A stretch of DNA of 64,000 nt, from NCBI GenBank assembly GCA_964291675.2, contig OZ219865.1, positions 864,001-928,000 of the forward strand. The letters run 5' to 3'. The notes below the pieces were generated by a model that had not been told where the DNA came from, did not search any database, and saw nothing but the letters and a program-made list of their open reading frames with translations. Position 1 is the first letter of the stretch; every line of letters starts with the position of its first letter. This stretch comes from Alphaproteobacteria bacterium. GTDB taxonomy: Bacteria > Pseudomonadota > Alphaproteobacteria > MPNO01. A program made the translations under genes and the position numbers. Positions 1 through 40,644 of the stretch are shown here, one piece after another.

Positions 1-443
1 AGGCCGCAAAACGCCTCCGATCCCATCATGCCCGGCGCGAAGCGCGAGCCCTCCTCGTTGAGCCAGGCCACCGCCTCGATCGGCCGCGCGGTCTCGATCC
101 CGGCAGCGTCCAGCGCCTGCAACGCCTCCAGCGCGGCGAGCACCCCGTAGGCGCCGTCGAACTTGCCGCCGGTCGGCTGGCTGTCGATATGCGATCCGGT
201 CAGCACCGGGGCGAGGGTCGGGTCGGTGCCCTCGCGCCGGACGAACAGGTTGGAGATGCCGTCGACCGTTACAAGGTAGCCGAGCTCCCCCGCCCATTCG
301 GCGAGCAGGGCGCGGGCGCGCGCCTCCTCGGCGCTCAGCGCCTGGCGGTTGACCCCGCCCTTCTCGGTCGCGCCGATCCGGGCCAGCGCCATGTGGCGCT
401 GCCAGAGCCGCTCCTCGTCGACCGCGGCGGCGGCTGCGCTCAC
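1..443 (-). CDS. Zn-dependent amidohydrolase, M20 family (allantoate amidohydrolase / N-carbamoylase-like); 5' part only, runs off window start
   Basis: Reverse-strand translation gives RLWQRHMALARIGATEKGGVNRQALS...LTGSHIDSQPTGGKFDGAYGVLAALE; GTG start at 443 overlaps the stop of the upstream gene (GTGA). Confidence 0.85.
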   Translation of the reverse strand, partial: MSAAAAAVDEERLWQRHMALARIGATEKGGVNRQALSAEEARARALLAEWAGELGYLVTVDGISNLFVRREGTDPTLAPVLTGSHIDSQPTGGKFDGAYGVLAALEALQALDAAGIETARPIEAVAWLNEEGSRFAPGMMGSEAFCG

Positions 444-1336
444 CCGCCGGGCTCCGCGTCGTGGAAGCCGGACAGCAGCGCCGAGGCGCCCTGCGCGAAG
501 GGGCGTGCGGTCCAGCGCCCGGCCTCGACGGTGGCGAAGAAATCGGCGAGCGCCTGGTTGAACAGCGCCGGCTCCTCCAGGTTCACCGCATGCCCGGTCT
601 TGGGCAGGATCAGCAGCGCCGCCGTCGGTATGGTGCGCTTGAGGTAGATCCCGGGCTCCAGGCACCAGTCGTCCTCGTCGCCGGCGACCACCAGCGCCGG
701 CACCGACATCTCCGCGAGCCCGTCCAGGCGCCACAGCGAGGGGCGGTGCTTCTGCACCCCCCGCATGGTGCGCGCCGAGCCTGCGGTGGAGTGCTCGGCG
801 AGCTGGTCGCGGAACTCGGCCCAGCCGCGCGGGTCCTTCTCCTTCAGCTGCAGGCGGTAGGCGCCGCTGGCGTAGATCTCCGCCACCTCGGCGGCGCCGC
901 GCGTCTCGTACTCGACCGCGATGGCCTCCGAATCGAGGGCGTATTGCGCGCTCTCCTCGGGCTTGGCGCCATAGCCGCAGGCGCCGACCACGATGGAGCG
1001 CGCCATGTCGGCATAGCGCAGCCCGAAATGGAGCGCCGCGAACCCGCCCATCGACATGCCGACGACATGCGCGCGCCCGATGCCGGCGCCCCGCATCACG
1101 GCGGCGATGTCGTCGGTCGCGATATCCTGCGAGTAGAGCGCCTGGTCGTCCGGCACCTCGGACGGCGGGTAGCCGCGCGCGTTGAAGGCGATGCAGCGGT
1201 AGCGGCGCGAGAAGTGTCGGACCTGCGGCTCCCAGCTTCGGCAGTCGCCGGCGAATTCGTGGACGAAGACGATGGCATCGCCCGCGCCCGCCTCCTCGTA
1301 GTAGAGCCTCGCCCCGTCGGCCTGGGCGAACGGCAT
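440..1336 (-). CDS. alpha/beta fold hydrolase
   Basis: VFVHEFAGD oxyanion region, GMSMGG nucleophile elbow, TGHAVNLEEP catalytic His. Confidence 0.9.
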   Translation of the reverse strand: MPFAQADGARLYYEEAGAGDAIVFVHEFAGDCRSWEPQVRHFSRRYRCIAFNARGYPPSEVPDDQALYSQDIATDDIAAVMRGAGIGRAHVVGMSMGGFAALHFGLRYADMARSIVVGACGYGAKPEESAQYALDSEAIAVEYETRGAAEVAEIYASGAYRLQLKEKDPRGWAEFRDQLAEHSTAGSARTMRGVQKHRPSLWRLDGLAEMSVPALVVAGDEDDWCLEPGIYLKRTIPTAALLILPKTGHAVNLEEPALFNQALADFFATVEAGRWTARPFAQGASALLSGFHDAEPGG

Positions 1337-1378
1337 CGGCGCCTCCCTTCAGTTCACCATGGAACGCACGCGGCCAGC

Positions 1379-1492
1379 CGTCCTTCGATACGCGGCTTCG
1401 CCGCTACTCAGGATGAGGGTGGGGCGTGGGGCAGCCCCGATCACCCGCCCTCATCCTGAGTAGCCCGCCGGAGGCGGGCGTATCGAAGGACG
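1379..1492. repeat. Inverted pair of REP-like palindromic units (family 1: CTCATCCTGAGTAGC-hairpin-GCGTATCGAAGGACG)
   Basis: Reverse copy 1379-1419 and forward copy 1448-1492; same unit recurs near 5201, 7069 and 29027. Confidence 0.85.
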
Positions 1493-1526
1493 GCCGCGCG
1501 GCACTCCCATCCATAACGGATACTCC

Positions 1527-2525
1527 CTACCGCTCGGCACCGGTCGTGGTCCGGGTGAGCTTGGCGCGGCGGTACTGCCAGGCGACCACCGGTTCGTGCT
1601 TCGGCGGCTCGCCCGGGACGCGGCAGCTCTCGATGCATTCGATCACCGCGTCGTAGTTGGGCTGGACGAAGAAGGCGACCGACTGGCGCCTGGCGCCGCC
1701 GGAGGCATCGGCCGGCGGGTTGACCACGCGGTGGAAGTTGGAAAGCCAGCGGTCGTTGGTCCAGGTCATCAGCAGATCGCCGATATTGACCACATAGGAG
1801 CCGGGCGGCGGCGACACGTCGACCCAGCGCCCCGAAAGGTCGCGCACCTGGAGTCCGCCGGGGGCGTCGTCGACCATGAGCAGCGTATGCGAGCCGAAAT
1901 CGGTGTGCGCGCCGCAGCGCAGCTGTCCAGGCACCGGCGGGGCGTCCTGCTCGGGATAGTCGATGGCACGCAATATCGAGGCGTGGCGGTCGAAATGGCG
2001 TTGCAGGAATCCCTCTTCCAGCCCGAGGGCGCATTCGAAGATCGCGAGCAGCAGCGCGTTCAGCCCTTCGAGCGCGGCGTAATACTCGCGCGCGGTCTCG
2101 GCCAGCCCCTCCACCTCGGTGGGCAGGATGTTGGGCTCGTAGGCGTAGGCCGCCTCGGGATCGCTGAAATAGGGATCGTCGTCAGGCACGTCGAAGCGGC
2201 CGAAGCCGAAGGTCTCGCGCCAGTCCGGCGGCGAGGCCCCGCCGGCCGAGGCGGCGACGAAATCCCGTCCGTAAGGCAGATAGCCCCGGTTCTTGCTGTT
2301 GGCCGTGGCGCCGTATTTCGCCTTCGCGTCCCCTGGCAGGTCGAAGAAGGCGGCGAGCCGCGCCTGGGTCCGCCGCATGAGGTCTTCGGGAACGCCGTGC
2401 CCGGTGACGGCGAAGAAGCCGATGGTCTCCACCGCCCGGGCCACCGCGCCGGCGATGTCCCGCCGTTCGGCTTCGCCGCCGCGGGCGAAGCCGGAAATGT
2501 CGATCCGCGGGACGCCGACGCCCAT
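1527..2525 (-). CDS. Isopenicillin N synthase family 2OG-Fe(II) oxygenase
   Basis: C-terminal part of track ORF 1527..3353; real start MGVGVPRIDISGF; GFFAVTGHG, HTD...H facial triad, RQSVAFF. Confidence 0.9.
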   Translation of the reverse strand: MGVGVPRIDISGFARGGEAERRDIAGAVARAVETIGFFAVTGHGVPEDLMRRTQARLAAFFDLPGDAKAKYGATANSKNRGYLPYGRDFVAASAGGASPPDWRETFGFGRFDVPDDDPYFSDPEAAYAYEPNILPTEVEGLAETAREYYAALEGLNALLLAIFECALGLEEGFLQRHFDRHASILRAIDYPEQDAPPVPGQLRCGAHTDFGSHTLLMVDDAPGGLQVRDLSGRWVDVSPPPGSYVVNIGDLLMTWTNDRWLSNFHRVVNPPADASGGARRQSVAFFVQPNYDAVIECIESCRVPGEPPKHEPVVAWQYRRAKLTRTTTGAER

Positions 2526-2536
2526 CCCCCCTCCCC

Positions 2537-3676
2537 TCAATAGAGCGCGCGCCCGCTGCGCCCGCGGTCGATCGCGGCGGCGGTAAGCCCGGGCAGCAGC
2601 GCGCAGAACCTGGCCGCATCCTCCTGCTGCACGGTGGTCGACACCTTGACGAAGCGGTCGGCGAACAGCTTCGACTGGTAGGCCGCCTGGCGGATCATGA
2701 TGCCCTGTTCGAGATACAGCTCGCAGAGCGTCTCCGGCGCGATCCCCGCGGCGCTCACGTCGATCGCCACGAAATTCCCGTTCGACGGGTAGACCGGCAT
2801 GTCGAGCCCGTTGATCGGCCGCACCGCCTCGTAAATCGCGTGCTGGTTGGCGCGCTGGATGCGGTTGACCTCGGGGAACCATTCGTCCCGGGTCCGCAGC
2901 CCGGCGATCGCGCCCCGCTGCGAGACCAAATTGGAGCCGAGGCTGTTGGGCTGGCCGTCGGACAGCATCTCGATTACCGACGGGCGGGCCATCAGGCCGC
3001 CCACCCGGAGCCCGGCGAGGCCGAGCCACTTGGAGAAGCTGTAGGTGGTGACGGTCTTCTCCGGGTAGTGGCGCCAGGCGAGCGTGTGGTCGTGCGCGAA
3101 ATGGCGGTAGGTGCAGTCGTGGATCAGCCAGGCCCCGGCCTCGCGCGCGATATTGGCGAAGGCCGCGATCTCGTCCGCCGAATAGCCGATTCCGAGCGGG
3201 TTGAGCGGATCGATCAGGTAGATCAGCCCGGCCCCGCCGGCCGCCACCGCCTCGGCAAGCTGGCCGGGCGTCAGCCTGAAACCCTGCTCGGCGCGGTAGA
3301 TGGGGAGCGCCACCACCTCGGCGCCCGACAGCCGGGAGAAGGCTTCCGGCCAAGGCCAGCCGGGGTCGGTCGCGATCATCCGCTGGCCGGGGCGCAGCAC
3401 GTGGCGGCAGGCATGGTACAGCCCCTCGACCGCGCCGTCGGTGATCAGCACGTCGGCATCCTCGACCGCGAAATCTTCCAGGATCAGCCGGCGCAGCTCC
3501 TCCAGCCCGGTCGGCGGCGCGTAGGCGTGGTAGTCCTCATGCTCGATCGCTTCGATCATCGCGCGCTTGACCGCGGGGTGGGTGGGCAGGTGGTTGGTGT
3601 TCTGCCCCATCCAGACCGTCCCGCGCCGTTGCGCGAGCGCCTCGAAATGCCGGTTCCGCTCCTGGTAAGGTTGCAT
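2537..3676 (-). CDS. PLP-dependent aminotransferase, class I/II
   Basis: DPLNPLG, HDCTY, SFSKWLGLAGLRVG (PLP lysine motif); start taken at MQPYQERN. Confidence 0.85.
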   Translation of the reverse strand: MQPYQERNRHFEALAQRRGTVWMGQNTNHLPTHPAVKRAMIEAIEHEDYHAYAPPTGLEELRRLILEDFAVEDADVLITDGAVEGLYHACRHVLRPGQRMIATDPGWPWPEAFSRLSGAEVVALPIYRAEQGFRLTPGQLAEAVAAGGAGLIYLIDPLNPLGIGYSADEIAAFANIAREAGAWLIHDCTYRHFAHDHTLAWRHYPEKTVTTYSFSKWLGLAGLRVGGLMARPSVIEMLSDGQPNSLGSNLVSQRGAIAGLRTRDEWFPEVNRIQRANQHAIYEAVRPINGLDMPVYPSNGNFVAIDVSAAGIAPETLCELYLEQGIMIRQAAYQSKLFADRFVKVSTTVQQEDAARFCALLPGLTAAAIDRGRSGRALY

Positions 3677-3768
3677 CGCGCAAGTGTAGAGCATAAGCGC
3701 CCGCGCCGCTGGAAAACGGAGGCGTCCCGGCGCTACCATGCGCATCGTCCAGAGCGCCGGGGGAGGAG

Positions 3769-4779
3769 ATGGCCGAGCACCCCGTACCCACCATCGACAT
3801 CGCGCCCTTCGTCGAGGGCGGCGAGGCGGGGCGCGACGCGGTGGCCCGCGCCGTCGGGCGCGCCTGCGAGGAGACCGGCTTCTTCGCGATCGTCGGCCAC
3901 GGCGTGGCGGAGGAGGAGATCGAGGCGCTGCGCGCCGAGGCCGTCCGTTTCTTCGCCCTGCCGGAAGAGCGCAAACGCCTCGTCGAGCGCCCGGCCGACC
4001 GCATCAGCCGGGGCTGGAATTCGCTCTGCGACCGCTCGCTCGCCTATTCGCTCGGCAAGGAGACCCCGCCCGATTTGCAGGAGAGCTTCGCCATGGGGCC
4101 GGTCGCGGTGCCGGACGAGCCCTACTTCACCTGCGAGCGTGCGCGCGCCTTCTTCGCGCCCAATCTCTGGCCGGAGGGGCGGCCCGCATTCCGCCGGGCG
4201 ATGGAGCGCTACTACCGGTCTATGGAGGGGCTCTCGCAGACGGTGATGCGCATCTTCGCCCGCGCGCTCGGGCGGGACGACGGCTATTTCGACGGCCGCA
4301 TCGACCGGCACTCGTCGAGCCTCCGCCTGATCCGCTACCCCGGGCGCGTCGACGGCGCGGCGGACGGCCAGCGCCGGGCGGGCGAACATCACGACTACGG
4401 ATCGCTCACCATCTTGCGCGGCGACAACCTGCCGGGCGGGCTCCAGGTCAAGCTGCGCCATGGCGGGTGGATCAACGTGGTCAGGCCCAACGGCGGGTTC
4501 ATCTGCAATATCGGCGACGCGATGATGCGCTGGACCAACGACCGCTGGGTGTCGACGCTGCACCGCGTCGGCCTGCCGGAAGGGCCGGACAGCCCCGACC
4601 GGATCTCGCTCGTGTTCTTCCACAACCCCAACTACGACGCCGAGATCCGCTGCATCGCGGCCGACGGCGAGGCGGCGCGCTACCCGCCGTCGGCTTTCGA
4701 TTCCTTCTATGTCGACAAGCTCAGGCGCGGCTCGTTCGGCGCCGCCATGCCGGCGGGGCTTGCAACGCGGGCCGACTGA
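3769..4779 (+). CDS. Isopenicillin N synthase family 2OG-Fe(II) oxygenase
   Basis: VPTIDIAPF, GFFAIVGHG, HHDYGSLT, STLHRV, RISLVFF; GGAGGAG RBS. Confidence 0.9.
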   Translation: MAEHPVPTIDIAPFVEGGEAGRDAVARAVGRACEETGFFAIVGHGVAEEEIEALRAEAVRFFALPEERKRLVERPADRISRGWNSLCDRSLAYSLGKETPPDLQESFAMGPVAVPDEPYFTCERARAFFAPNLWPEGRPAFRRAMERYYRSMEGLSQTVMRIFARALGRDDGYFDGRIDRHSSSLRLIRYPGRVDGAADGQRRAGEHHDYGSLTILRGDNLPGGLQVKLRHGGWINVVRPNGGFICNIGDAMMRWTNDRWVSTLHRVGLPEGPDSPDRISLVFFHNPNYDAEIRCIAADGEAARYPPSAFDSFYVDKLRRGSFGAAMPAGLATRAD

Positions 4780-32044: not shown

Positions 32045-32392
32045 GTGGCGCGTCGTGTACGCCGGTTCTGGTCGGACGATGAGAAGCGCCGGATTGTTGC
32101 GCAGAGCTACGCGCCCGGGGTTTCGGTGTCGGTTGTGGCGCGTCGCTACGACGTGAACTCCAACCTGATCTTCACTTGGCGGCGCGATCCCCGCTACAGG
32201 CCGGCGGCGGATGGCGAGGGTGCGCCGTCCTTCCTGGCGGTGGAGGTGGTGCCCGATGCGCCGCCGTCAGAGCCGTCTGCGGCATCGGAGGGTCGGATCG
32301 AGATTGCGTTGTCGAGCGGCCACCGGGTGAGCGCGATCGGGGCGTTCGACGTGGACGCGCTGTGTCGCGTGGTGCGGGCGCTGGGCGGATGA
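32045..32392 (+). CDS. tnpA: IS66 TnpA (HTH accessory protein)
   Basis: RRFWSDDEKRRIV...VARRYDVNSNLIFTWRR; ATGA overlap with tnpB start. Confidence 0.9.
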   Translation: MARRVRRFWSDDEKRRIVAQSYAPGVSVSVVARRYDVNSNLIFTWRRDPRYRPAADGEGAPSFLAVEVVPDAPPSEPSAASEGRIEIALSSGHRVSAIGAFDVDALCRVVRALGG

Positions 32393-32544
32393 TCCCGGTT
32401 GAGCAGGCGCAGGCTTTCAGCGGGGATTGGGGGCTGATCCGCTTGGATTAATCGAGGTTTTGGGGAAGGTGCCCCCCGGCGATCTTGCAAGAAGGCCGCC
32501 GGAGGGCTTGTCTCGGTGACAGCTACATCAACTGAGACGCCCCA

Positions 32545-33159
32545 ATGTCGCACAAGCTGTTCCGTCACTCCATCCTCTGCAACGCCCGGGTTTGGGACTT
32601 TCTGAAGCAGGTCGACGCAGCCGAGGCGGAGGCCTGCCGTGCGGTGGGCTGTCCTCACTGCGGCGGGACGCTTCACAGCGCGGCCTACCCTCGCAAGCCG
32701 TACGGTCTGGCGGCGGATCTTCGGGACGATGTGCGGCGCTTCAGCCTGTGCTGTTCGGTGTGCAGGCGCCGGGTGCGTCCTGCCTCGGTGCGTTTCTTCG
32801 GTCGGAGGTTCTACGTCGGTGCGCTGTTCCTGCTGGTGAGCGCACTGGCGCTGACCGGCGGGGTGCGGTTGCAGACGATCGCGCGGCGCTGTGGGGTTCC
32901 GGTCTCGACGCTGAAGCGCTGGCGTCGCTGGTGGCTGGACGCCTTCCCGGCGACCCCGGAGTGGGCGGCGAAGCGGGGCGAGCTGGCGACACCGGCCGGG
33001 GAAGCGCCTGTGCGCCGGCTGCTGCGCCTGATGCGGGGCCGGGGCCTGCGGGCGCGGCTGCTGCGGAGCCTGGTCTGGCTGATGCCGTGGACCGGTTCTT
33101 GCGCGCTCGGCGCCGGGCCGGCTTCGCCCGCAGAAAGCGTTTCTGTCATGAACGGATAG
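32545..33159 (+). CDS. Zn-ribbon plus HTH protein of the nested transposon
   Basis: CPHCGG...FSLCCSVCRRR Cys pairs; VPVSTLKRWRRWW HTH-like segment. Confidence 0.7.
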   Translation: MSHKLFRHSILCNARVWDFLKQVDAAEAEACRAVGCPHCGGTLHSAAYPRKPYGLAADLRDDVRRFSLCCSVCRRRVRPASVRFFGRRFYVGALFLLVSALALTGGVRLQTIARRCGVPVSTLKRWRRWWLDAFPATPEWAAKRGELATPAGEAPVRRLLRLMRGRGLRARLLRSLVWLMPWTGSCALGAGPASPAESVSVMNG

Positions 33160-33208
33160 GGGCTCTTACACCGGCATCTCCCCAACAGGGCGAGGGAGGG
33201 ATGCCGGG

Positions 33209-34663
33209 ATGGACAGCAACGACGGGAGCGAGCGTCGCGACCGGTGGGCGCGGCTGCGCTTCGCGGTGGTCGGGCCGCTTCTGGCCTCGCCGCCGCCGAA
33301 GGGGAAGCTGCGGGCCGAGCTGGAGCGGCTGGCCGGACGCGAGTGGGAACATCCGTCCGGCAAGGGGCCGGTGCGCTTCTCGGCCTCCACGATCGAGCGC
33401 TGGTACTACCAGGCGCGGGCGCAGGAGCAGGACCCGGTCAAGGCGCTTCGCCGAAAGCCACGGGCCGACATCGGCCGCGAACGGGCGATATCGGCGGCAC
33501 TGATCGAGGTGTTGCGCGATCAGTACCGGGCGCATCCGTCGTGGTCGGCACAGCTGCACCATGAGAACCTGGCGGCGCTGGTCGCGGCCGATCCGGCGCT
33601 CGGCCCGATGCCGTCCTATGCGACGCTCACCCGGGCGATGCGGGCTCGCGGGCTGGTGCGCAAGCGCCGGCGCAAGTGGCACGAGAGCGAGGCGCGGCCG
33701 CCTGTCCAGGCCCGCGAGGTACTGAGCTACGAGGTCACGCGCAGCCACGCCCTGTGGCACAGCGATATGCATACCGCCAAGTGTCGTGTGCTGACGGCCT
33801 CGGGCGAGTGGAAGACGCCGATCCTTCTGGGCTTTCTCGACGACCACTCCCGGCTCGGCTGCCACCTTCAGTGGTATCTCGCCGAGACCGCAGAGGTCTT
33901 CGTCCATGGGCTGTGCCAGGCGTTGATGAAGCGGGGCCTGCCGCGGTCCCTGCTGACCGACAACGGCTCGGCGATGACCGCCGGCGAGGTCGAGGAAGGG
34001 TTGCTCCGGCTCGGCATCGCGGGGGTCACGACGCTCGCGTACAGCCCGCATCAAAATGGAAAGATCGAGACTTTCTGGGGCACGGTCGAATCACGCCTGA
34101 TGGCCCAGCTCGAAGGCGTCGACGCGCTCACCCTGAAGATGCTCAACGACGCCACCGTCGCCTGGCTGGAGCAGGACTATCACCGCCGCGAGCACCGCGA
34201 ACTCGGCATGTCGCCGCATCGGCGCCTCGCCGGGAGCGTCGACGCATCGCGGCCCTGCCCCGGCGCGGCCGAGCTCAAGGCGGCCTTCCGCATCACGAGG
34301 AAGCGCATGCTCCGGCGCTCGGACGGCACCGTCTCGGTCGAGAACATCCGCTACCAGATACCGCCGCCGTGGCGCCACCTGCGCGAGGCCTGGGTCCGCT
34401 ATGCGCGCTGGGACCTCAGCAGCGTCGATCTGGTCGACGGCCGGGGCGGCGAACGGCTGTGCACGCTCTATCCCCTCGACAAGCGCGGCAACGCCGATGG
34501 TGTGCGCCGTCCCATCGGCCCCGGCGACGACGATGGCAAGGGCGGCGAGGGGACAGGCGGACTGCCGCCGCTGCTCAAGAGCATGCTCGACGCGCAGGCT
34601 GCAACCGGCCTGCCGCCGGCATGGCTTGCCTTCGATGACACCCGCGATGATGGAGAACGCTGA
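33209..34663 (+). CDS. DDE-type integrase/transposase (rve core, Mu/IS481-like)
   Basis: LWHSD, FLDDHSR, LTDNGS, YSPHQNGKIE; N-terminal HTH STIERWYY; C-terminal RSDGTVSV. Confidence 0.9.
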   Translation: MDSNDGSERRDRWARLRFAVVGPLLASPPPKGKLRAELERLAGREWEHPSGKGPVRFSASTIERWYYQARAQEQDPVKALRRKPRADIGRERAISAALIEVLRDQYRAHPSWSAQLHHENLAALVAADPALGPMPSYATLTRAMRARGLVRKRRRKWHESEARPPVQAREVLSYEVTRSHALWHSDMHTAKCRVLTASGEWKTPILLGFLDDHSRLGCHLQWYLAETAEVFVHGLCQALMKRGLPRSLLTDNGSAMTAGEVEEGLLRLGIAGVTTLAYSPHQNGKIETFWGTVESRLMAQLEGVDALTLKMLNDATVAWLEQDYHRREHRELGMSPHRRLAGSVDASRPCPGAAELKAAFRITRKRMLRRSDGTVSVENIRYQIPPPWRHLREAWVRYARWDLSSVDLVDGRGGERLCTLYPLDKRGNADGVRRPIGPGDDDGKGGEGTGGLPPLLKSMLDAQAATGLPPAWLAFDDTRDDGER

Positions 34664-35496
34664 TGAACCGCGAACACCTCACCCTGTACGGGCTCAAGTG
34701 GAACCCGTTCGCCCCTGACCTCCCGGTCGACAGCCTGATGGCGACTGGCGCCGTCGACAGCTTCTGCCTCAGGATCGAACGCCATCTCGTGCGCCACGGC
34801 GGCTTCGCACTGATCGCCGGAGAGCCCGGAACCGGAAAGAGCGTTGCCCTGCGCCTGCTCGCCCACCGGCTCGGGCGATGCGACGGGCTCAGGGTCGCCG
34901 CCATCACCCACCCGTCCTCGAGACTGTCGGACTTCTACCGCGAGATCGGCGAGCTGTTTGGCGTCGACCTGCTGTACAACAATCGCTGGGCCAGCTTCAA
35001 AAACCTGCGCCAGCGCTGGCTCGCGCATCTCGATGACACCCGCATGCGCCCGGTGTTGCTCATCGACGAGGCCCAGGAACTGCTGCCCTCGGTGTTCTCC
35101 GAGATCCGCCTGCTCGCGTCGACCGACTTCGACTCGCGCGCCATCCTCTCCGTCGTCTTCGCCGGTGACAACCGCCTGCTCGACCGGCTCCGCCAGCCCG
35201 ACCTGCAGCCCATCGCCTCGCGTATCCGACAGCGTCTGCTGATGACCCGGACCGAGGACGCCGACCTGGCCGGCCTGCTCGACCATCTGCTCGAAGAGGC
35301 CGGCAATCCGGCGCTGATGACCGCCGGGCTCAGGGACACCCTCGTCACCCATGCCGCAGGAAACCCCAGGGCACTCACCGTCATGGCTGATGCCGTGCTC
35401 GCAGCCGGTGCCGAGAAGGATCGCGAGGTGCTCGACGAGAAGCTCTTCATCGAGACCCTCGGCGAGGCACCGCCAGCCAGGCGGGCCCGGCGATGA
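34663..35496 (+). CDS. ExeA-like AAA ATPase (transposition helper)
   Basis: YGLKWNPF, GEPGTGKS Walker A, LLIDEAQ Walker B, GNPR. Confidence 0.88.
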   Translation: MNREHLTLYGLKWNPFAPDLPVDSLMATGAVDSFCLRIERHLVRHGGFALIAGEPGTGKSVALRLLAHRLGRCDGLRVAAITHPSSRLSDFYREIGELFGVDLLYNNRWASFKNLRQRWLAHLDDTRMRPVLLIDEAQELLPSVFSEIRLLASTDFDSRAILSVVFAGDNRLLDRLRQPDLQPIASRIRQRLLMTRTEDADLAGLLDHLLEEAGNPALMTAGLRDTLVTHAAGNPRALTVMADAVLAAGAEKDREVLDEKLFIETLGEAPPARRARR

Positions 35497-36482
35497 CCGG
35501 CTTCCCGACACGGCCACCGGCCGAACTCGAGGAGCGGCCGCGGGAGCGGCAGTGGCTGGTCGATGCCCTGTGGAGCGAACAGGGGGTCGGCATCGTCGGC
35601 GGCGAGCCCAAGTGCGGCAAGTCCTTCCTCGCGCTGGACCTCGCCGTCGCGGTGGCTGCAGGAGTGCCCTGCCTGCGCCACTTCCGCCCCGCGGCAAGCG
35701 GCACCGTGTTGCTCTTCGCCGCCGAGGACGCCGGTCACATCGTGCGCGACCGCCTCAAGGGCATCGCCCGGGCCGCCGGCGCCGACTTCGAGGCCCTCGA
35801 CATCGCCGTCATCGACGTGCCCACGCTCCGCCTCGATCATCGCCTCGACCGGCAGCGGCTGCTGGAGACCGTCGAACGGATCGGACCGCGCCTCCTCGTC
35901 CTCGATCCCCTGGTCCGCCTGCATGGCGTCGACGAGAACGCGGTTGCGGAAGTCGCTCCCATCCTCGGCTTCCTGCGCGACCTGCAGCGCCGCTTCGGGA
36001 CCGCTGTGCTGCTCGTCCACCACGCTCGCAAGAGTGGCGCCAGCCGCCCCGGCCAGGCGCTGCGCGGCAGCAGCGAGCTGCATGCCTGGGGCGACAGCAA
36101 TCTCTACCTGCGCCGGCGCGACGGGCAGATCGTCATGACCGCCGAGCATCGCGCCGCACCCGGCCTCAACAATATCGAGATCGAGCTTGCCGATGACGGC
36201 GAAGGACCAGCGCTGCAGCTCCGGCGGACAGGACCTCACCAGGCTCCGCCGCAGCCGGACAGCGCCGAACAGCGGATCGCCCAGGTGCTCGCGACAGCCG
36301 AATCCCCACTCGTGCAGTCCGAGATCCGAAAACGCGCCGGGGTACGCAACGCGACTGTCTCCGCGGCACTGCACGGGCTTGTGCGCGAGGGACGGGTCGA
36401 GCGCGGGACGGGAGGTCGCTACCGCTTCCTCGGAACCGCGGCGAACCAAGCCGACAACCCGACGGACAGCCACAACCCGTAG
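35493..36482 (+). CDS. RepA-like (AAA_25 / SF4 helicase-like) ATPase with C-terminal winged HTH
   Basis: WLVDALW, GGEPKCGKS, AAED, LLVLDPL, VHHARKSG, RGSSEL. Confidence 0.82.
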   Translation: MTGFPTRPPAELEERPRERQWLVDALWSEQGVGIVGGEPKCGKSFLALDLAVAVAAGVPCLRHFRPAASGTVLLFAAEDAGHIVRDRLKGIARAAGADFEALDIAVIDVPTLRLDHRLDRQRLLETVERIGPRLLVLDPLVRLHGVDENAVAEVAPILGFLRDLQRRFGTAVLLVHHARKSGASRPGQALRGSSELHAWGDSNLYLRRRDGQIVMTAEHRAAPGLNNIEIELADDGEGPALQLRRTGPHQAPPQPDSAEQRIAQVLATAESPLVQSEIRKRAGVRNATVSAALHGLVREGRVERGTGGRYRFLGTAANQADNPTDSHNP

Positions 36483-36497
36483 GCGAAGCAGCCCCTC

Positions 36498-36551
36498 TTC
36501 CCGTTCCCGTTCCGGCGAACCCTTAAGCGTTGCAGGGAACGGGAACGGGAA
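36498..36551. repeat. Inverted array of GGGAAC hexamers (origin-like hairpin)
   Basis: TTCCCGTTCCCGTTCC-N22-GGAACGGGAACGGGAA perfect 16-bp arms just after the AAA stop. Confidence 0.7.
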
Positions 36552-38571
36552 CACCAGCGCACAATGCCCCACGAAACTGCCTGAAGCGATCGGCCAATGG
36601 CCGAAAGCTCTGCTTACGGCCATGGCAGCCCTCTGGCGCGGGGACGGCGGCGGGTCACCCGAAGGGCCGTAGCGGAGCGAAGGAGCCGCGAAGCGGCTTG
36701 AAGCGCCGACGGCCTCGCGACACTCCCCGCCCGGCCTTCCTGCAAACGGCAGACGATCCCCATCGAATAACGCGAAATCCGCACCATCAAACAACGTGCG
36801 CGCGCTCACCGGTCCCGTCCTCGACCCGGGTATGGCTGGCCTGCGGGGTGACCGACATGCGCAAGGGGTTCCCGGGGCTTGCGGCGCAGGCGGAGCGGGT
36901 GTTGAAGGCGGATCCGCATTGCGGCCATCTCTTCATCTACCGGGGCCGTCGGGGCGACCTGATCAAGATGATCTGGTGGGACGGCCAGGGAGCGTGCCTG
37001 TTCTCGAAGCGTCTTGAGCGCGGCCGTTTCGTGTGGCCGTCGGCGTCGGAGGGCAAGGTTTCGGTGACGCCGGCGCAGCTGTCGATGCTGTTGGAGGGGA
37101 TCGACTGGCGGGCGCCGGTTCGCACCTGGCGGCCTTTGGCGGCGGGATGATTCATCGTTTATATACAATAGGTTGACTCCTATCCGGGCTTCCCTTTGGC
37201 GGCCTTTTCCTGTAGGCTGCGGTCATGCTCGAAGAGGCGCATTCCCTGCCTGACGACATCGCCGCACTGAAGGCGATGGTGCTGTCCTCGCGGGCCGAGG
37301 TGGCGGCGCGGGACGCCGAGTTGCGCAACCGTGACCTTCTGATCGAGAAGCTCAAGCACCAGCTTGCGGGTCTGCGCCGCCAGCGCTTCGGCGCCACTTC
37401 GGAGGCCCTCGATCAGCTTGAGCTCGGGCTGGAGGACGAGGAGATCGCGCGCTCGGCCGAGACGTTTGCCGAGCCAGCCCCGGCGGCAAAGAGACAGCCC
37501 AAGCGCCGTCCCTTGCCGGACCACCTGCCGCGCGAGGAGACGCATCTCGCGCCTTCAGGCGATCGCTGCGCGGACTGCGGCGGTCGCCTCAAGCGTCTCG
37601 GCGAGGATGTGACCGAGGAGCTGGAGTACATCCCCGGCCGCTTCGTGGTGAAGCGCATCGTGCGCCCGCGCCTGGCCTGCGGCGGCTGTGAGACGTTCCA
37701 CCAAGCGCCGCTGCCGTCGCGGCCGATCGAGCGCGGCCGTCCGGGCCCGGGCCTTCTGGCGCATGTGCTGGTCTCGAAGTACTGCGATCACCTGCCGCTC
37801 TACCGTCAGTCGCGTATCTTCGCCCGCGATGGCGTCGATCTCGACCGCTCGACGCTGGCCGGCTGGGTGGGCAAGGCGACGGCGCTGCTGGAGCCCCTGG
37901 CCGATGCCGTCGGGCGCCATGTTCTGGGCGGCCAAGCCCTGTTCGCCGACGACACCCCGGTCAAGTTGCTGGCGCCGGGGACCGGCAAGACGGCGACGGG
38001 TCGGGCCTGGACCTATGTCCGCGACGAGCGTCCGTGGAAGGGCGAGGCATCGCCGGCGGCGTGGTATCGCTTCTCGGCCGACCGCAAGGCGGCGCATCCG
38101 AAGAGCCATCTCGCGGGCTACGCCGGCTGGATGCACTCGGACGGCTATGCCGGCTTCGGCGCACTGGCGCGCGCGGGGCCGGTCCGCGAGGTCGCCTGCC
38201 TGGCCCATGTGCGGCGCAAGTTCTTCGACGTCCACGCCGCTCAGGGCTCGGCGGTCGCCGCCGAGGCGCTGGAACGGATCGCCGCGCTCTACGCCATCGA
38301 GAAGGAGGTCCGCGGGCAGCCCCCAGAGCGCCGCGTCGCGATCCGCCGCGCCAAGGCCGCGCCGCACCTCGATGAGTTCGAGCGCTGGCTGCAAACGCAA
38401 CTGCCGAAGCTCTCCGCCAAGACCCCGCTGGCGGCGGCGATCCGCCATGCGCTGACCCGGCTGAAGCGCCTGCGGCCCTATATCGAGCACGGCTTCCTCG
38501 AGATCGACAACAACCCGGCCGAGCGCGCGATGCGCCCGATCGCGACGATGGAGTCATTCTGCACCCCTTCT

Positions 38572-40644
38572 TCAAGTGTCTGAAAACATTGACATCTGAT
38601 CCCGACATGAAGCGCGACGCGGGTCTTTCCGCAGTGCCAGGGCGTTGGCGACCCGCTCGGAATGGAGGTCTTTGGCCCTGATTTGCCAGGGCGCTCCGGG
38701 AACGAGTTGCGTGGCAGGTAGCGTTCCATCCTCGATCAGGCGCCTGAGGGTATGGCTGGTCGTGCCCAACTCTTTCGCCGCCTCGGTCATGGTGCGCCAG
38801 TCGCCCTGCTTGTCCGCTGAGAGGTAGCCGTCGATCCCGTTCACACGCCGGATCGATCCGACCCGGTGAGCGGTCCAACTCTTGTGCTGCCCGGTCCGCA
38901 TACCCATCCGGTTGAGCGACGCGGCGATATGTTCGTCCGACCATCGCCCGGCCATGCTGCGTATCACTGCCAGAGCTTCCTCGGGCGTTCGGCAGCCATG
39001 TTCGCCGCTCTTGGGCTTGCGGACCCTGAGACGGGAATGACGGCCACCCATCCAGTGGATCGTCAGCAGGACGTCACGCGCCTCTTCGTCGACATCGACG
39101 ATTATGCCCATGATCAGGGTGCGCACGAGACGCTGGCGGGCGCGCATGCTCACCCCGGGCGCGTTCCAGGCGGCCTTCAGGTCGTCGGCAAGTCCGGCCA
39201 GGTCGGGGACAGTGGGCCGCGGCGACGGCATCGCGCCCAGCCTTGCTTCGCACGCCTGGACGCGTCGAAGCGCTGCCTCCCAACTCTTCTCCAGCTCGGC
39301 GGCGATCAGCCGGTTGTCCGGATCGCAGGCGGCGTAGCGCCGCTCGGCGAGCGCCGCCTCGTAGCGGGCTTGCTGCAGATCCAGCTCGGCCACCCGTTGC
39401 TGTTCGGAAAGACCCTCCGCGTTCATCCGCTCGGCTTCCAACGAGGCTTCCACCGCCATGGGCTCCACGACGCGGAGGATCTCATCGGCAACGGCCGCAT
39501 CCACACGCGCACCCCCGAACCCCAGACAGGGCTCTAGCTCGAGCTGGAGGTGTCGCCGATTGCAGCGGTAGACAGGATTGCCGGGCGTGCGACCGGAATA
39601 GGCAACGCTCATCGTGCGTCCGCAGCGTGCGCAACTGAGGAGGCCGCCAAGAAGCGCCCGCCCGCCGCGCCCCGACTTCGTGCCCCCCGCCTTGCCGAAG
39701 GCATTGGCGGCGAGCTGCGCCTGGTTGCGCTCGAACTCCGGCCAGTCGATGTAGCCCTCGTGATGGTCCTTCAGCACGACCTCCCATTCCGCCATCGGCT
39801 TGCGGTGTCCATAGCTCTTGCGCACGCGCCCGTCGACGATCTCGGTCCGCCGCTCGCTTTTGCCGTAAGCGTAGACCCCGGCGTAGAAAGGGTTCTTCAA
39901 CACCGAAATTACGTTGCGATAGCGGATCGGCGTCCAGTCGAAGGAGACCATTGTCCTGCCATCCGACGGGCGTGGGAAGCAAAGCTTCTGCCCGCTCAGC
40001 GCCAGCAACACCTGCCGCGCGCTGCCAAGCTCGCGAAACCGGGCGAATACCTGACGGATCGCTTCCTGAACCCGAATGTCGGGGTCCAGCCCCAGCCCGG
40101 CCTCGGGATGCCAGACGTAGCCGATCGGGACGCTGATGCGAAGCTCGCCGCGGGCGGCCTTGGAGCGGGCGGCCTCGAACATCCGAGCGCGCAGAACGCC
40201 GAGTTCGAACTCGCTGATCTGGCCCTTCATGCCGAGCAGCAGACGATCGTTGGGGTGGCGAGGATCGTAGATGCCATCCTGGTCGATGACGCGTGCCTCG
40301 ACGAGACCGCAGAGCTCGAGAAGATGGTGCCAGTCCCGGCCGTTGCGAGAGACCCGCGAAGCCTCGAAACAAAGCACGGCTCCAACGTCCCCGGCGCACA
40401 GCCAGGCGACGAGGCGCTCGAAACCGGGCCGCGCAACGGCACCGTCCGCCGACAGGCCCTGATCGTCGTCGATGACTTCGACCCGGGCAAAGCCGTGCCC
40501 GCGCGCCACATCGACGAGATCGTATTGGCGGCGCTGGCTCTCCAGATTGTTCCGCATCTGCTGGGGCGTGGACTGACGGACATAGACCACGGCCTTGCGC
40601 GTCAACACCGATCGCGGCAACGCTTCAGCGACGCCCATCGTCAT
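38572..40644 (-). CDS. Large serine recombinase (resolvase, recombinase, Zn-ribbon, coiled coil, C-terminal HTH)
   Basis: AVVYVRQS catalytic Ser, EASRVSRN, LKNPFYAG, CARCG...YRC. Confidence 0.93.
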   Translation of the reverse strand: MTMGVAEALPRSVLTRKAVVYVRQSTPQQMRNNLESQRRQYDLVDVARGHGFARVEVIDDDQGLSADGAVARPGFERLVAWLCAGDVGAVLCFEASRVSRNGRDWHHLLELCGLVEARVIDQDGIYDPRHPNDRLLLGMKGQISEFELGVLRARMFEAARSKAARGELRISVPIGYVWHPEAGLGLDPDIRVQEAIRQVFARFRELGSARQVLLALSGQKLCFPRPSDGRTMVSFDWTPIRYRNVISVLKNPFYAGVYAYGKSERRTEIVDGRVRKSYGHRKPMAEWEVVLKDHHEGYIDWPEFERNQAQLAANAFGKAGGTKSGRGGRALLGGLLSCARCGRTMSVAYSGRTPGNPVYRCNRRHLQLELEPCLGFGGARVDAAVADEILRVVEPMAVEASLEAERMNAEGLSEQQRVAELDLQQARYEAALAERRYAACDPDNRLIAAELEKSWEAALRRVQACEARLGAMPSPRPTVPDLAGLADDLKAAWNAPGVSMRARQRLVRTLIMGIIVDVDEEARDVLLTIHWMGGRHSRLRVRKPKSGEHGCRTPEEALAVIRSMAGRWSDEHIAASLNRMGMRTGQHKSWTAHRVGSIRRVNGIDGYLSADKQGDWRTMTEAAKELGTTSHTLRRLIEDGTLPATQLVPGAPWQIRAKDLHSERVANALALRKDPRRASCRDQMSMFSDT

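Follow-up and report, generated by a model that had tools for sequence, protein, structure and literature searches.

A Tn6049-type transposon with a portable module encoding a RepA-like helicase candidate

The window, a 64,000-nt stretch of an alphaproteobacterial contig, holds an active 4.4-kb transposon on a Tn6049-type backbone, in which a gene for a RepA-like helicase candidate (gene 4) and an adjoining hexamer array follow the three backbone genes (Table 1). We found that gene 4 forms an accessory module, portable but linked to transposons with a DDE transposase and an ATPase. It is not a universal core gene, and it is not sporadic cargo either; we give roughly even odds (about 0.5) to the reading that it encodes a replicative helicase serving the copying of the element in transposition.

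Table 1. Features of the transposon, given as positions in the window.
Feature	Position	Strand	Basis
Left TSD copy CCGGT	32395..32399	.	Flank reading; single copy at empty site C2:1233764-1233768
Whole transposon	32400..36808	+	4 identical copies, empty site, 4,414-base-skipping joint
Left terminal inverted repeat TGAGCAGGCGCAGG	32400..32413	+	Read from sequence; imperfect vs right end
Gene 1, 204-aa Zn-ribbon (C36, C39, C69/70, C73) + HTH_23	32545..33159	+	Pfam HTH_23 27.5 bits
Gene 2, 484-aa DDE (rve) transposase	33209..34663	+	rve 28 bits, HTH_32
Gene 3, 277-aa AAA+ ATPase, MuB/TnsC/TniB/ExeA class (helper/target ATPase)	34663..35496	+	AAA_22 76.8 bits
Gene 4, 329-aa RepA(RSF1010)-like RecA-fold ATPase (~27-245) + C-terminal winged helix (~257-312)	35493..36482	+	AAA_25 130 bits
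Inverted tandem-hexamer array (GTTCCC)n ... CTTAAG ... (GGGAAC)3	36498..36551	.	16 nt past gene-4 stop
Subterminal direct repeats CCATCGAATAACGCG (36760-36774) + CCATCAAACAACGTG (36784-36798)	36760..36798	+	Read from sequence
Right terminal inverted repeat ...CGTGCGCGCGCTCA	36795..36808	+	Read from sequence and copy ends
Right TSD copy CCGGT	36809..36813	.	Flank reading + empty site

The element is 4,409 bp long and ends in TGAGC...GCTCA, its left junction (32395-32407) reading ...ATGATCCCGGT / TGAGCAGG... and its right junction (36800-36816) ...GCGCGCTCA / CCGGTCCC, where the slash marks the boundary. Judged by reading the ends, the two terminal repeats are imperfect and agree at about 11 of 14 positions; the element ends at loci L060 and L061 are near-identical (TGAGCGCGCC.../...GCGCGCGCTCA). 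Four copies in the same genome are 100% identical over exactly element positions 1-4409, three of them with perfect 5-bp target-site duplications (TSDs; CCGGT/CCGGT, CCGGA/CCGGA and ACCCG/ACCCG) and the fourth with the flanks cctgt/ctgtt, which match over 4 bp only (CTGT). At an empty site in this genome (C2:1233369-1234168), the left flank (400 nt, closing with CCGGT) continues directly into 400 nt of right flank, and in an independent run (X2, three contigs) the joint skips 4,414 bases, that is, the 4,409 of the element plus the 5 of the TSD. The exact ends, the CCGGT duplication and the insertion into tnpB, all described in a first-pass annotation of this DNA, were therefore borne out by the copies and the unoccupied site. 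The disrupted gene is an IS66 tnpB (window:36815-37150 scores 130 bits against TnpB_IS66), and it is neighboured by tnpA (HTH_Tnp_1) and tnpC (DDE_Tnp_IS66, 300 bits). We saw no circle or tandem junction in the assembly or in the X2 contigs, from which rare forms could not be revealed. The subterminal direct repeats are likely transposase-binding sites, and relatives carry the CCATCRA...CG motif at their right ends as well, the PsJN element and elements without gene 4 among them.

The ORFs and their Pfam matches agree with the first-pass gene content of a Zn-ribbon/HTH protein, an rve-type DDE transposase, an ATPase and an AAA_25 protein with a winged helix, all four co-directional, with overlaps of 1 nt between genes 2 and 3 and 4 nt between genes 3 and 4. 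The backbone genes (Zn-ribbon/HTH, DDE transposase and AAA+ helper ATPase) are translationally coupled. Gene 1, presumably a DNA-binding protein, keeps the cysteines of its 4-Cys ribbon in a 21-row alignment; its fold model (pLDDT 69) returned no PDB match, and no likeness to TniQ was detectable. Gene 2 has a catalytic triad, D186/D251/E287, that is invariant in the alignment, and is IS481-like at a score under the family cut-off (114 bits on NCBIfam transpos_IS481, cut-off 224), while gene 3 matches phrog_296 'DNA transposition protein' (E 2.6e-20) and is weakly similar to ShCAST TnsC.

Genes 1-3 are colinear with ORF1, the transposase and the 'gspA' ATPase of Tn6049 (Cupriavidus metallidurans CH34; also on Pseudomonas aeruginosa plasmid pHS87a), at 41, 50 and 51% identity, respectively, which places the backbone in a named, uncharacterised family. 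We therefore rejected the earlier proposal of a wholly distinct family; its other half, that the family is poorly described, still applies, since Tn6049 was named in 2009-2010 and is not known to have been characterised in its mechanism. CH34 is reported to carry 12 copies of Tn6049, all without the gene-4 helicase. Tn6049 and the present element both have imperfect TG...CA terminal repeats, a CCATCGA-type subterminal motif and target duplications that are short, and both occur in many copies in a genome. Tn6049 is 3,517 bp long with a 71-aa ORF without Pfam match as its fourth gene, and has neither the AAA_25 gene nor the GGRAAC array, both of which are present here. TSDs measure 4 bp for Tn6049 in pHS87a (as reported), 6 bp in pMOL30 (CTATCG) and 5 bp in the present element.

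This variable TSD length across the Tn6049-type family sets it apart from Mu, Tn7 and Tn5053/Tn402 (MuA/MuB, TnsB/TnsC, TniA/TniB). The present element resembles these in pairing an rve-fold transposase with an AAA+ ATPase of its own and in its TG...CA ends, subterminal repeats and 5-bp duplications, but it has no TnsA, TniQ or resolvase, and its Pfam score for TniB is 16.5, below the cut-off of 22.4. We know of no helicase encoded by Mu, Tn7 or Tn5053/Tn402. The two-component DDE and AAA+ design likewise recalls IS21 (IstA + IstB), but gene 2 falls short of the transpos_IS21 cut-off (40 bits against 160) and gene 3 has no IstB_IS21 match. To our knowledge, classical IS21 has no third gene.

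By sequence and predicted fold, gene 4 is closest to the hexameric helicase RepA of RSF1010: 1g8y is its best PDB profile match (E 2.8e-15), and 1g8y_A is the top Foldseek match of its AF2 model (pLDDT 78), in keeping with the RepA-like label it had first been given. Its PHROGs matches are the helicase parts of phage primase-helicases, and every one with an annotated function belongs to a DNA primase, helicase or polymerase family; the best match (phrog_3123) has no functional annotation. K43 (the Walker A lysine), E78, D79, D138, H176, H177, K180 and R191 are invariant across 13 orthologues. The likeness to RSF1010 (IncQ; RepA, RepB' primase, RepC, oriV) extends to the pairing of gene 4 with a primase in some relatives and to the repeat array adjoining the gene, whereas the context is a transposon rather than a plasmid, a RepC homologue is missing, the primase is DnaG-type in relatives and absent from the present element, and RSF1010 RepA lacks the C-terminal winged helix, its 279-aa 1g8y chain aligning only to residues 31-197.

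The P-loop glycine that precedes the invariant lysine varies among orthologues (G/A/C/F/S), which is unusual for an active NTPase, and raises the alternative that gene 4 serves as an ATPase for target selection or regulation and does no unwinding, comparable to TnsE, TniQ and TnsD of Tn7-like elements, its winged helix and RecA-like oligomer recognising some structure or sequence in DNA, for instance replication forks or, for immunity, the repeat of the element itself. Rad51, RadA and KaiC, which are not helicases, are also among the Foldseek matches, distant phage homologues (26-31% identity) are annotated either 'RecA-like DNA recombinase' or 'DNA primase/helicase', and the 'fourth gene' slot is variable and exchangeable among backbones, as target selectors are. 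We nevertheless consider a targeting role quite unlikely: the best match in both sequence and fold is a replicative helicase, the four insertion sites compared in this genome have no evident motif in common, and in six loci of two lineages gene 4 is joined by a DnaG primase or the zinc-binding domain of one, company that fits replication and not targeting. A full DnaG-like primase (Zn_ribbon_DnaG + Toprim; 102 bits on TIGR01391, under the cut-off) lies past gene 4 in genomes G050, G158 and G174 and sits between the inverted repeats of a 5.5-kb contig (L127), and a 103-aa ORF with Zn_ribbon_DnaG only lies past the repeat in L091, L015 and L036, in L091 inside the right end.

We followed the module from two seedings, one with the transposase (80 genomic loci) and one with the helicase (62 metagenome loci with enough upstream DNA). 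A gene-4 orthologue (42-60% identity) comes after the ATPase gene in 26 of the 80 transposase-seeded loci, starting within ~130 nt of the end of the gene-3 match (350 nt in L021), and these loci span Planctomycetota, Verrucomicrobiota, Acidobacteriota, Gemmatimonadota and Alpha- and Deltaproteobacteria; the gene is missing from 15 of 41 scorable related loci among the 80, and probably from 21 more. In the helicase-seeded set, 57 of 62 loci have a gene-3 homologue immediately upstream. The five without a gene-3 match are read as IS21-type, and in the one that was scanned (L179), the helicase lies downstream of IstA (250 bits against a cut-off of 160) and IstB (204 bits against 200); compared with L179, two of the others match over their full length (L192, L194), one in the IstA/IstB part only (L197) and one not at all (L195). 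Some true IS21 elements thus carry a gene-4 orthologue and the hexamer array after istB, and an IS21-type unit of 4,613 bp with gene 4 is common to two contigs. In every multi-copy element checked (4,229-4,559 bp, and one of at least 4,734 bp), gene 4 lies within the ends. Among 401 genomes of the phylum, gene-4 matches of at least 100 bits occur only in G000, G050, G158, G222 and G174, the remainder scoring 87 bits or less, and where the locus reaches upstream (G050, G158, G222), a gene-3-like ATPase precedes gene 4. No orthologue-level match with enough upstream sequence in these 401 genomes lies outside such an element, and 72,556 plasmids yielded no match at E 1e-10.

Whether the AAA_25 gene is sporadic cargo, as the first-pass annotation had allowed, has a mixed answer: it is absent from Tn6049 and the 15 of 41 loci, yet conserved and syntenic in a large group of several phyla. 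This pattern of absences, set against synteny across phyla, a place within the ends and occurrence in other backbones, is the basis for calling it a portable accessory. Helicases that are 71-82% identical ride on backbones just 25-33% identical, which is accessory-like behaviour, and on a transposase tree of 113 rows at least seven gains or losses are needed to explain where gene 4 is present; where it is absent, unrelated small ORFs occupy the slot past gene 3. By these sequence comparisons, gene 4 and its repeat have moved among backbones as a module. In at least four kinds of ATPase-assisted DDE element, the module takes up one and the same position, between the helper-ATPase gene and the right end: Tn6049-like elements, the 25-33%-identical backbone, IS21-family elements passing NCBIfam cut-offs, and a lineage that adds a DnaG-type primase.

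Such swapping, the repeated gains or losses, the small ORFs in the vacant slot and the mobility of sister elements, including Tn6049, without the module would also suit selfish or hitchhiking cargo, a small-replicon remnant or maintenance function with no role in transposition that persists because the slot just inside the right end of an ATPase-assisted transposon can accommodate an insert. We hold this to be doubtful, as the elements are minimal (4.2-4.7 kb) and free of other cargo, defence-system models found no match, and the association is confined to DDE and AAA+ elements at all 62 helicase-seeded loci that could be assessed (five of them read as IS21-type), a restriction echoed by the empty plasmid search and the 401 genomes. 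The 4-nt overlap of genes 3 and 4, moreover, suggests co-expression.

The array was examined alongside gene 4. Tandem GGRAAC hexamers occur within 400 nt past the gene in 37 of 82 distinct loci, the strict motif being missing from the other 45; the 342,295 nt of sequence on the upstream side of the gene in these loci contain none, nor do 41 loci that lack the gene (an earlier count of the cis element gave 10 of 18 loci with gene 4 and 0 of 43 without). Folded as DNA, the array reaches -22.5 kcal/mol (z = -4.1, 0 of 200 shuffles equal), but a covariation test of the inverted repeat was not significant (76.0% paired against 74.9% when shuffled, with 56 of 500 shuffles as high) and no consensus structure came out of RNAalifold; a hairpin is therefore not established. 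The strict linkage of the array to gene 4 speaks for the origin-like reading first proposed, and we treat the array as a candidate loading/binding site or terminator. It begins 16 nt past the last stop codon and has a strong stem, as a mere operon terminator or a winged-helix autoregulatory operator might, and covariation lends no extra support to any particular role; still, such a function in place of an origin-like loading site seems rather improbable. The array has no T-run and a terminator scan of the element was empty, its arms consist of tandem 6-nt units that keep their sequence among orthologues only 55-60% identical and accompany gene 4 into IS21-type elements, and the motif follows the last gene in 0 of 41 gene-4-less elements. 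In L091, L015 and L036 the array precedes another gene, showing that it is not always the operon end.

If gene 4 is a replicative helicase, its winged helix would position it on the hexamer array inside the element, and the loaded helicase would unwind the transposon so that the host replisome copies it during transposition, with an element-encoded primase or primase zinc domain assisting in some lineages. The copying may belong to a copy-out step that gives a circular or abutted-end intermediate, or else it may act on a strand-transfer intermediate or on a circle that has been excised. Sister elements move without gene 4, so the family can do without the helicase for its basic mobility, and the helicase would act as an efficiency or autonomy factor that is not essential to DDE chemistry.

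A precedent for linking replication proteins to such elements is IEE, which one preprint describes as a fusion of an AEP PrimPol with a UvsW-like helicase that is encoded outside the IS, acts in trans and promotes excision, with IS21, IS3 and other families listed as circle-forming via copy-out-paste-in (bioRxiv 10.1101/2023.06.07.543989). The likeness is a primase/helicase-type replication protein functionally tied to circle-forming DDE ISs, whereas the present protein is a RepA-like RecA-fold ATPase encoded within the element. Casposons, Polintons and TV-Pol/D5-helicase elements bear their own replication enzymes (PMC2579912) and have polymerases, integrases of other kinds, and helicases of the AAA+ D5 type or others; the present element encodes no polymerase and joins a Mu/IS21-style DDE and AAA+ pair to an SF4-type RepA-like ATPase. 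In the literature we found no published description of an element that loads its own helicase to drive replicative transposition. Taken together, our analysis suggests that such elements supply part of their own replication machinery.

The element begins with TGAGC and ends with GCTCA, and CCGGT flanks it on both sides. In the assembly of this genome (two contigs, 4.8 Mb), exactly bases 1-4409 occur at 100% identity in four copies, three of them bounded by perfect 5-bp duplications (CCGGT, CCGGA, and ACCCG) and the fourth by cctgt/ctgtt, of which just 4 bp match. The gene interrupted in the window is the tnpB of an IS66-family sequence (TnpB_IS66, 130 bits), located between tnpA and tnpC, and an unoccupied version of this target, in which the left flank and a single CCGGT run directly into the right flank, was found on contig C2. 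From this uninterrupted IS66 stretch, we concluded that the transposon sits inside another mobile element, an insertion sequence. A joint skipping 4,414 bases (4,409 + 5) was also present in three contigs of X2, an independent public sequencing run. The identical copies, the duplications, the empty site, and the X2 joint thus bore out the exact boundaries and target duplication proposed in the first-pass annotation and confirmed recent mobility. Run X2, which comes from another study under another organism label, contained, at high depth, 89% of the sequence words sampled from the element, along with the empty IS66 site and diverged variants, so that the element or its host bacterium is present in more than one sampled source. 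A fifth copy (L005), 77% identical, lies on contig C1, where the contig end cuts gene 3 and a frameshift splits the transposase across two frames.

Coordinates of the features discussed; positions without a prefix are those of the window, C1 and C2 are contigs of the same genome, and L-numbers are homologous loci
Feature	Position	Description
Element	32400-36808	
Gene 1	32545-33159	Zn-ribbon/HTH protein; four conserved cysteines and HTH
Gene 2	33209-34663	rve DDE transposase; D186/D251/E287 invariant among relatives
Gene 3	34663-35496	AAA_22 ATPase
Gene 4	35493-36482	AAA_25 and C-terminal winged helix; 4-nt overlap with gene 3
Inverted hexamer array	36498-36551	GGRAAC units
Second stem-loop	36597-36623	ATGGCCGAAAGC-TCT-GCTTACGGCCAT
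IS66-family target (tnpA, tnpB, tnpC)	32045-32392 and 36814-38583	
Intact copy of IS66 stretch	C2:1233369-1234168	
Fifth copy (L005)	C1:13-2889, minus strand	
Tn6049 in pMOL30	L011 2610-6150	
AbiEi-antitoxin-like gene	L013:4301-4900	
Long gene-1 frames	L029:84-2258, L048:152-2017, L068:207-1565	453-725 aa, extending into the gene-2 stretch
103-aa ORF	L091:9352-9663, L015:9370-9675, L036:4288-4587	DnaG CHC2 zinc-binding domain only; three Planctomycetota elements

The transposase (gene 2) was closest to IS481, scoring 114 bits on the NCBIfam model transpos_IS481 against a cut-off of 224, and the element falls outside that family because gene 2 is under this cut-off and because four genes are present versus the one of a single-gene IS. 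It likewise falls outside IS21 (gene 2, 40 bits vs a cut-off of 160; gene 3, no IstB_IS21 match) and Tn7/Tn5053 (TniB, 16.5 bits vs a cut-off of 22.4), and its ORFs include neither a TnsA nor a resolvase. Gene 3 matched a phage "DNA transposition protein" family (E 2.6e-20), which places it in the MuB/TnsC/TniB/ExeA class. For gene 1, the fold model was mediocre (pLDDT 69) and without a match among solved structures. The idea that gene 1 is a TniQ-like selector was unsupported: Pfam gave only HTH_23, a PDB profile search gave nothing below E 0.3, and no Foldseek match to the AF2 model reached E 0.001. The long gene-1 frames seen at three homologous loci could stem from a fusion, from programmed frameshifting, or simply from chance.

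When plasmids were searched for distant DNA matches, only genes 2-3 were hit, in a Paraburkholderia relative and in Tn6049, a transposon of Cupriavidus metallidurans CH34 (pMOL30) that also occurs in pHS87a. By blastp, genes 1-3 were 41, 50, and 51% identical to those of Tn6049 over nearly their full length, in the same order and on the same strand. Like the element, Tn6049 carries a colinear ORF1 (Zn-ribbon/HTH), DDE transposase, and "GspA/ExeA-like" ATPase, is bounded by imperfect inverted repeats with TG...CA tips, and is flanked by a short target duplication. Unlike it, Tn6049 ends in TGTGC...GCACA rather than TGAGC...GCTCA, measures 3,517 bp in pMOL30 rather than 4,409 bp, and has as its fourth ORF 71 aa without a family, with no AAA_25 gene, where the element has an AAA_25 protein of 329 aa. 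Published accounts put Tn6049 at 3.5 kb, with 12-bp imperfect terminal repeats (TGTGCATAAGCA/TGCTCACGCACA), a 4-bp direct repeat in pHS87a, and 12 copies in CH34, all with the ATPase gene "gspA"; the literature covered contained no mechanistic study of the transposon. On protein comparison, we assign the backbone to the Tn6049 family, although it fails that family's size and fourth-gene description. The "distinct, poorly described transposon family" proposed earlier failed the thresholds of the curated IS481, IS21, and TniB models but, with its Tn6049-type backbone, is not wholly distinct. In pMOL30, the sequence CTATCG (6 bp) stands on both flanks of Tn6049. A fixed 5-bp duplication was not supported as a family trait, given 4 bp at one of the identical copies and 4 and 6 bp at Tn6049, and duplication length seems variable in the family (6, 4, and 5 bp). 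The flanks of copies from MAGs, which may be unreliable, have just 2-3 bp in common.

We found that gene 4 is most similar to the RepA of IncQ replicons, both by sequence and by fold, and it is a predicted helicase. A profile of 13 gene-4 orthologues gave RSF1010 RepA (1g8y) as its sole strong PDB match (E 2.8e-15), and Foldseek searches with an AlphaFold model (pLDDT 78) returned 1g8y_A at the top, followed by Rad51, KaiC, and DnaB. The residues that characterize SF4 hexameric helicases of the RepA/DnaB type, which have a RecA fold (Walker A Lys, catalytic Glu, Walker B Asp, His/Gln sensor, and Arg finger), are present; K43, E78, D138, H176/H177, and R191 were invariant in the 13 orthologues, and the P-loop glycine preceding K43 (Gly42) was variable. 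An IncQ replicon comprises RepA, the RepB' primase, RepC, and an iteron-bearing oriV, whereas the element in the window has only the RepA-like gene; a DnaG-type primase occurs in relatives only, and the window element contains no further ORF. As defence-system cargo, gene 4 had no PADLOC match. Another reading, which we regard as quite improbable, makes gene 4 a target selector or regulator. A Z-DNA-binding Zalpha domain was considered for the winged helix and set aside, the profile matches being weak (E ~3e-4), and the likeness is probably generic to winged helices. These matches fall in residues ~255-309, and the right tip of the element contains a 12-nt alternating purine-pyrimidine run (ACGTGCGCGCGC).

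The distribution of gene 4 was assessed among loci collected with the transposase as seed (one genome per species; at least 489 loci, of which the best 80 were analysed). An orthologue, 42-60% identical, was present in 26 of these 80, starting no more than ~130 nt (350 nt in locus L021) from the end of the gene-3 match, and it was absent from 15 loci with at least 1,200 nt downstream; the other 39 were too short to score, and for 21 of them 400 nt or more of downstream sequence contained no gene 4. The positive loci came from about 19 genomes labelled as Planctomycetota, Verrucomicrobiota, Acidobacteriota, Gemmatimonadota, Alpha-, and Deltaproteobacteria. Where a genome held several copies, gene 4 lay within the common block (4,540, 4,500, 4,229, ~4,559, and, in one case, at least 4,734 bp); elements without it measured 3,387, 3,441, and 3,517 bp. 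Synteny had been proposed as a check on whether the AAA_25 gene always lies within the ends, and the answer was mixed, since the gene is inside the common blocks of multi-copy elements but absent from Tn6049 and the 15 scored loci. At one relative without gene 4 (L013), an AbiEi-antitoxin-like gene is found at the 3' side.

Gene 4 was strongly clustered on a transposase tree of the 80 loci: one half contained 25 rows positive for it versus 3 negative, and the other half contained 33 negative rows along with the window, on a long branch. With 33 metagenomic rows added (113 rows), the window fell within a well-supported clade of eight gene-4 positives. A single origin of gene 4 on a Tn6049-like backbone was rejected, as it required at least four changes on the 80-row tree and at least seven gains or losses on the 113-row tree, whose deep branches are weak. 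Pairwise distances for genes 2 and 4 were correlated (Mantel r 0.82, with 1 of 5,000 permutations as high), and the Spearman coefficient was just 0.28, indicating that the correlation arises mostly from subclades. It is unlikely, in our view, that gene 4 and its repeat are passive cargo.

Sixteen nucleotides past the gene-4 stop begins a repeat of the form (GTTCCC)n ... CTTAAG ... (GGGAAC)3, which gave z = -4.1 when folded as DNA. Of 18 distinct genomic loci, 10 have an exact CCGTTCC...GGAACGG pair 3' of gene 4, and none of 43 loci without gene 4 has it 3' of gene 3. When the motif was relaxed to two tandem GGRAAC units in either arm, the repeat occurred no more than 400 nt 3' of gene 4 in 37 of 82 distinct loci, nowhere in the 342,295 nt upstream of gene 4 at these 82 loci, and in 0 of 41 loci without the gene. 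The hexamer unit differs by lineage (GGGAAC, GGAAAC, GGGAAG, or GGTAAC), with left arms that match. RNAalifold found no consensus structure on A5, the alignment of the repeat region, and a hand-drawn 15-pair helix did no better than column shuffles. Because no covariation beyond conservation was detected, we claim a conserved inverted repeat and not a proven hairpin; what stands of the "origin-like hairpin" in the first-pass annotation is this repeat and its linkage to gene 4, with a hairpin or a duplex binding site as candidate roles. Its position just 3' of the last gene would suit a plain terminator or operator, but the repeat lacks a T-run and a scan for intrinsic terminators returned no sites in the element, and we regard this reading as distinctly unlikely. 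A scan for sigma-70 promoters in the element returned none either. An Rfam search of the element gave only a chance-level miRNA match (E 0.8). Past the hexamer array and before the right end is a second stem-loop, whose stem is also the top-ranking inverted repeat 3' of the helicase gene in the close relatives L132, L133, L135, L136, L137, and L149.

In a metagenome search seeded with gene 4, from which 80 loci were kept, gene 4 was immediately preceded by a gene-3 homologue in 57 of the 62 loci that extend 900 nt or more upstream; gene 2 was present in 43 of 46 and gene 1 in 29 of 37. We interpret the five loci that lack gene 3 as elements of the IS21 type. In the one scanned, L179, IstA (250 bits; cut-off 160) and IstB (204 bits; cut-off 200) precede the helicase gene; L192 and L194 match L179 along their length, the match of L197 is confined to the IstA/IstB part, and L195 shows none. 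A 4,613-bp block common to two IS21-type contigs reaches ~240 nt beyond the helicase gene, and the hexamer array goes along with that gene into these elements. At eight further loci, the helicase was 71-82% identical to that of the window, with an ATPase and transposase just 25-33% identical; the one scanned (L138) has a second, IS481-like backbone with a Mu-transposase C-terminal domain.

Across 401 genomes from the phylum, matches to gene 4 at orthologue level (at least 100 bits) were confined to its own genome and four others, and the remaining matches (at most 87 bits) lay in longer generic AAA_25 proteins. A gene-3-like ATPase is upstream of gene 4 in three of these genomes (G050, G158, and G222), and the locus in G174 starts inside gene 4. 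No match was found among 72,556 plasmids at E 1e-10, and phage matches were distant (26-31% identical) with varied annotation. In a large protein collection, 7,828 of 8,000 scored clusters reached E 1e-20 or better against gene 4; the best 120 had identities of 73-100%, came mostly from contigs of 2-5 kb, and, if they had a name, bore only that of "AAA family ATPase". These comparisons show the RepA-like ATPase and the repeat behaving as a portable module, confined to DDE transposons of the ATPase-assisted kind.

A helicase gene adjoining a primase gene is the canonical signature of a replication module. In G050, G158, and G174, which belong to one genus, a DnaG-like primase (Zn_ribbon_DnaG and Toprim; 102 bits on TIGR01391, under the cut-off) follows the helicase gene, and on the 5,552-bp contig L127 the primase is enclosed by the inverted repeats TGTTACGCTGCACGCC ... 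GGCGTGCAACGCAACA. Three elements with a Tn6049-like backbone instead carry the 103-aa zinc-domain ORF 3' of the hexamer repeat, and at L091 it precedes a recognizable right end. A primase zinc domain without the catalytic domain is unusual. The element is an active transposon with a Tn6049-type core and a RepA-like ATPase/repeat module, which in some relatives comes with a primase.

The prevailing view is that replicative and copy-out transposition rely on replication restart by the host, and phage Mu is, to our knowledge, the only case in which replisome assembly on such an intermediate has been elucidated. We propose that the winged helix would position the gene-4 ATPase on the hexamer array, and that the ATPase, acting as a helicase, would open the element for the host replisome in a replicative step. 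This step may be a copy-out that yields a circle or abutted ends, as is assumed for IS21/IS3-type elements, or alternatively replication of the strand-transfer product or of a circle. We give this helicase-loading mechanism as a whole a probability of about 0.5. Counting against it are sister elements that manage without gene 4, the repeated gain and loss of the module, the variable P-loop glycine, and the lack of circle or tandem junctions in the assembly and the sequencing-run contigs, data in which such forms would not have shown; a predicted complex of genes 3 and 4 (score 0.00, run without controls) counts neither for nor against. More tentatively, and at somewhat less than even odds, we suggest that these elements form a widespread, undescribed class of DDE transposons with a portable replication-initiation cassette (a RepA-like helicase, an origin-binding winged helix, a cis-acting hexamer array, and sometimes a DnaG-type primase) that would drive the replicative step or circle replication and would have spread horizontally among IS21, Tn6049-like, and other ATPase-assisted families.

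Full-text searches of the open literature found no DDE transposon with a RepA-like helicase, and the cargo tables of large transposon surveys (for example PMC8649781) could contain cases. The conceptual neighbours are the IEE (bioRxiv 10.1101/2023.06.07.543989) and transposons carrying replication enzymes (PMC2579912).

With the present analysis, the Tn6049 family is described comparatively over several phyla for the first time. If the proposed reading is true, elements that encode a helicase and a candidate loading site, in some cases together with a primase, would open the replisome-assembly step to genetic study and would account for an abundant, unannotated family of "AAA family ATPase" genes. 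They would also represent a bacterial DDE counterpart of self-synthesising transposons, blurring the border between transposons and small replicons.
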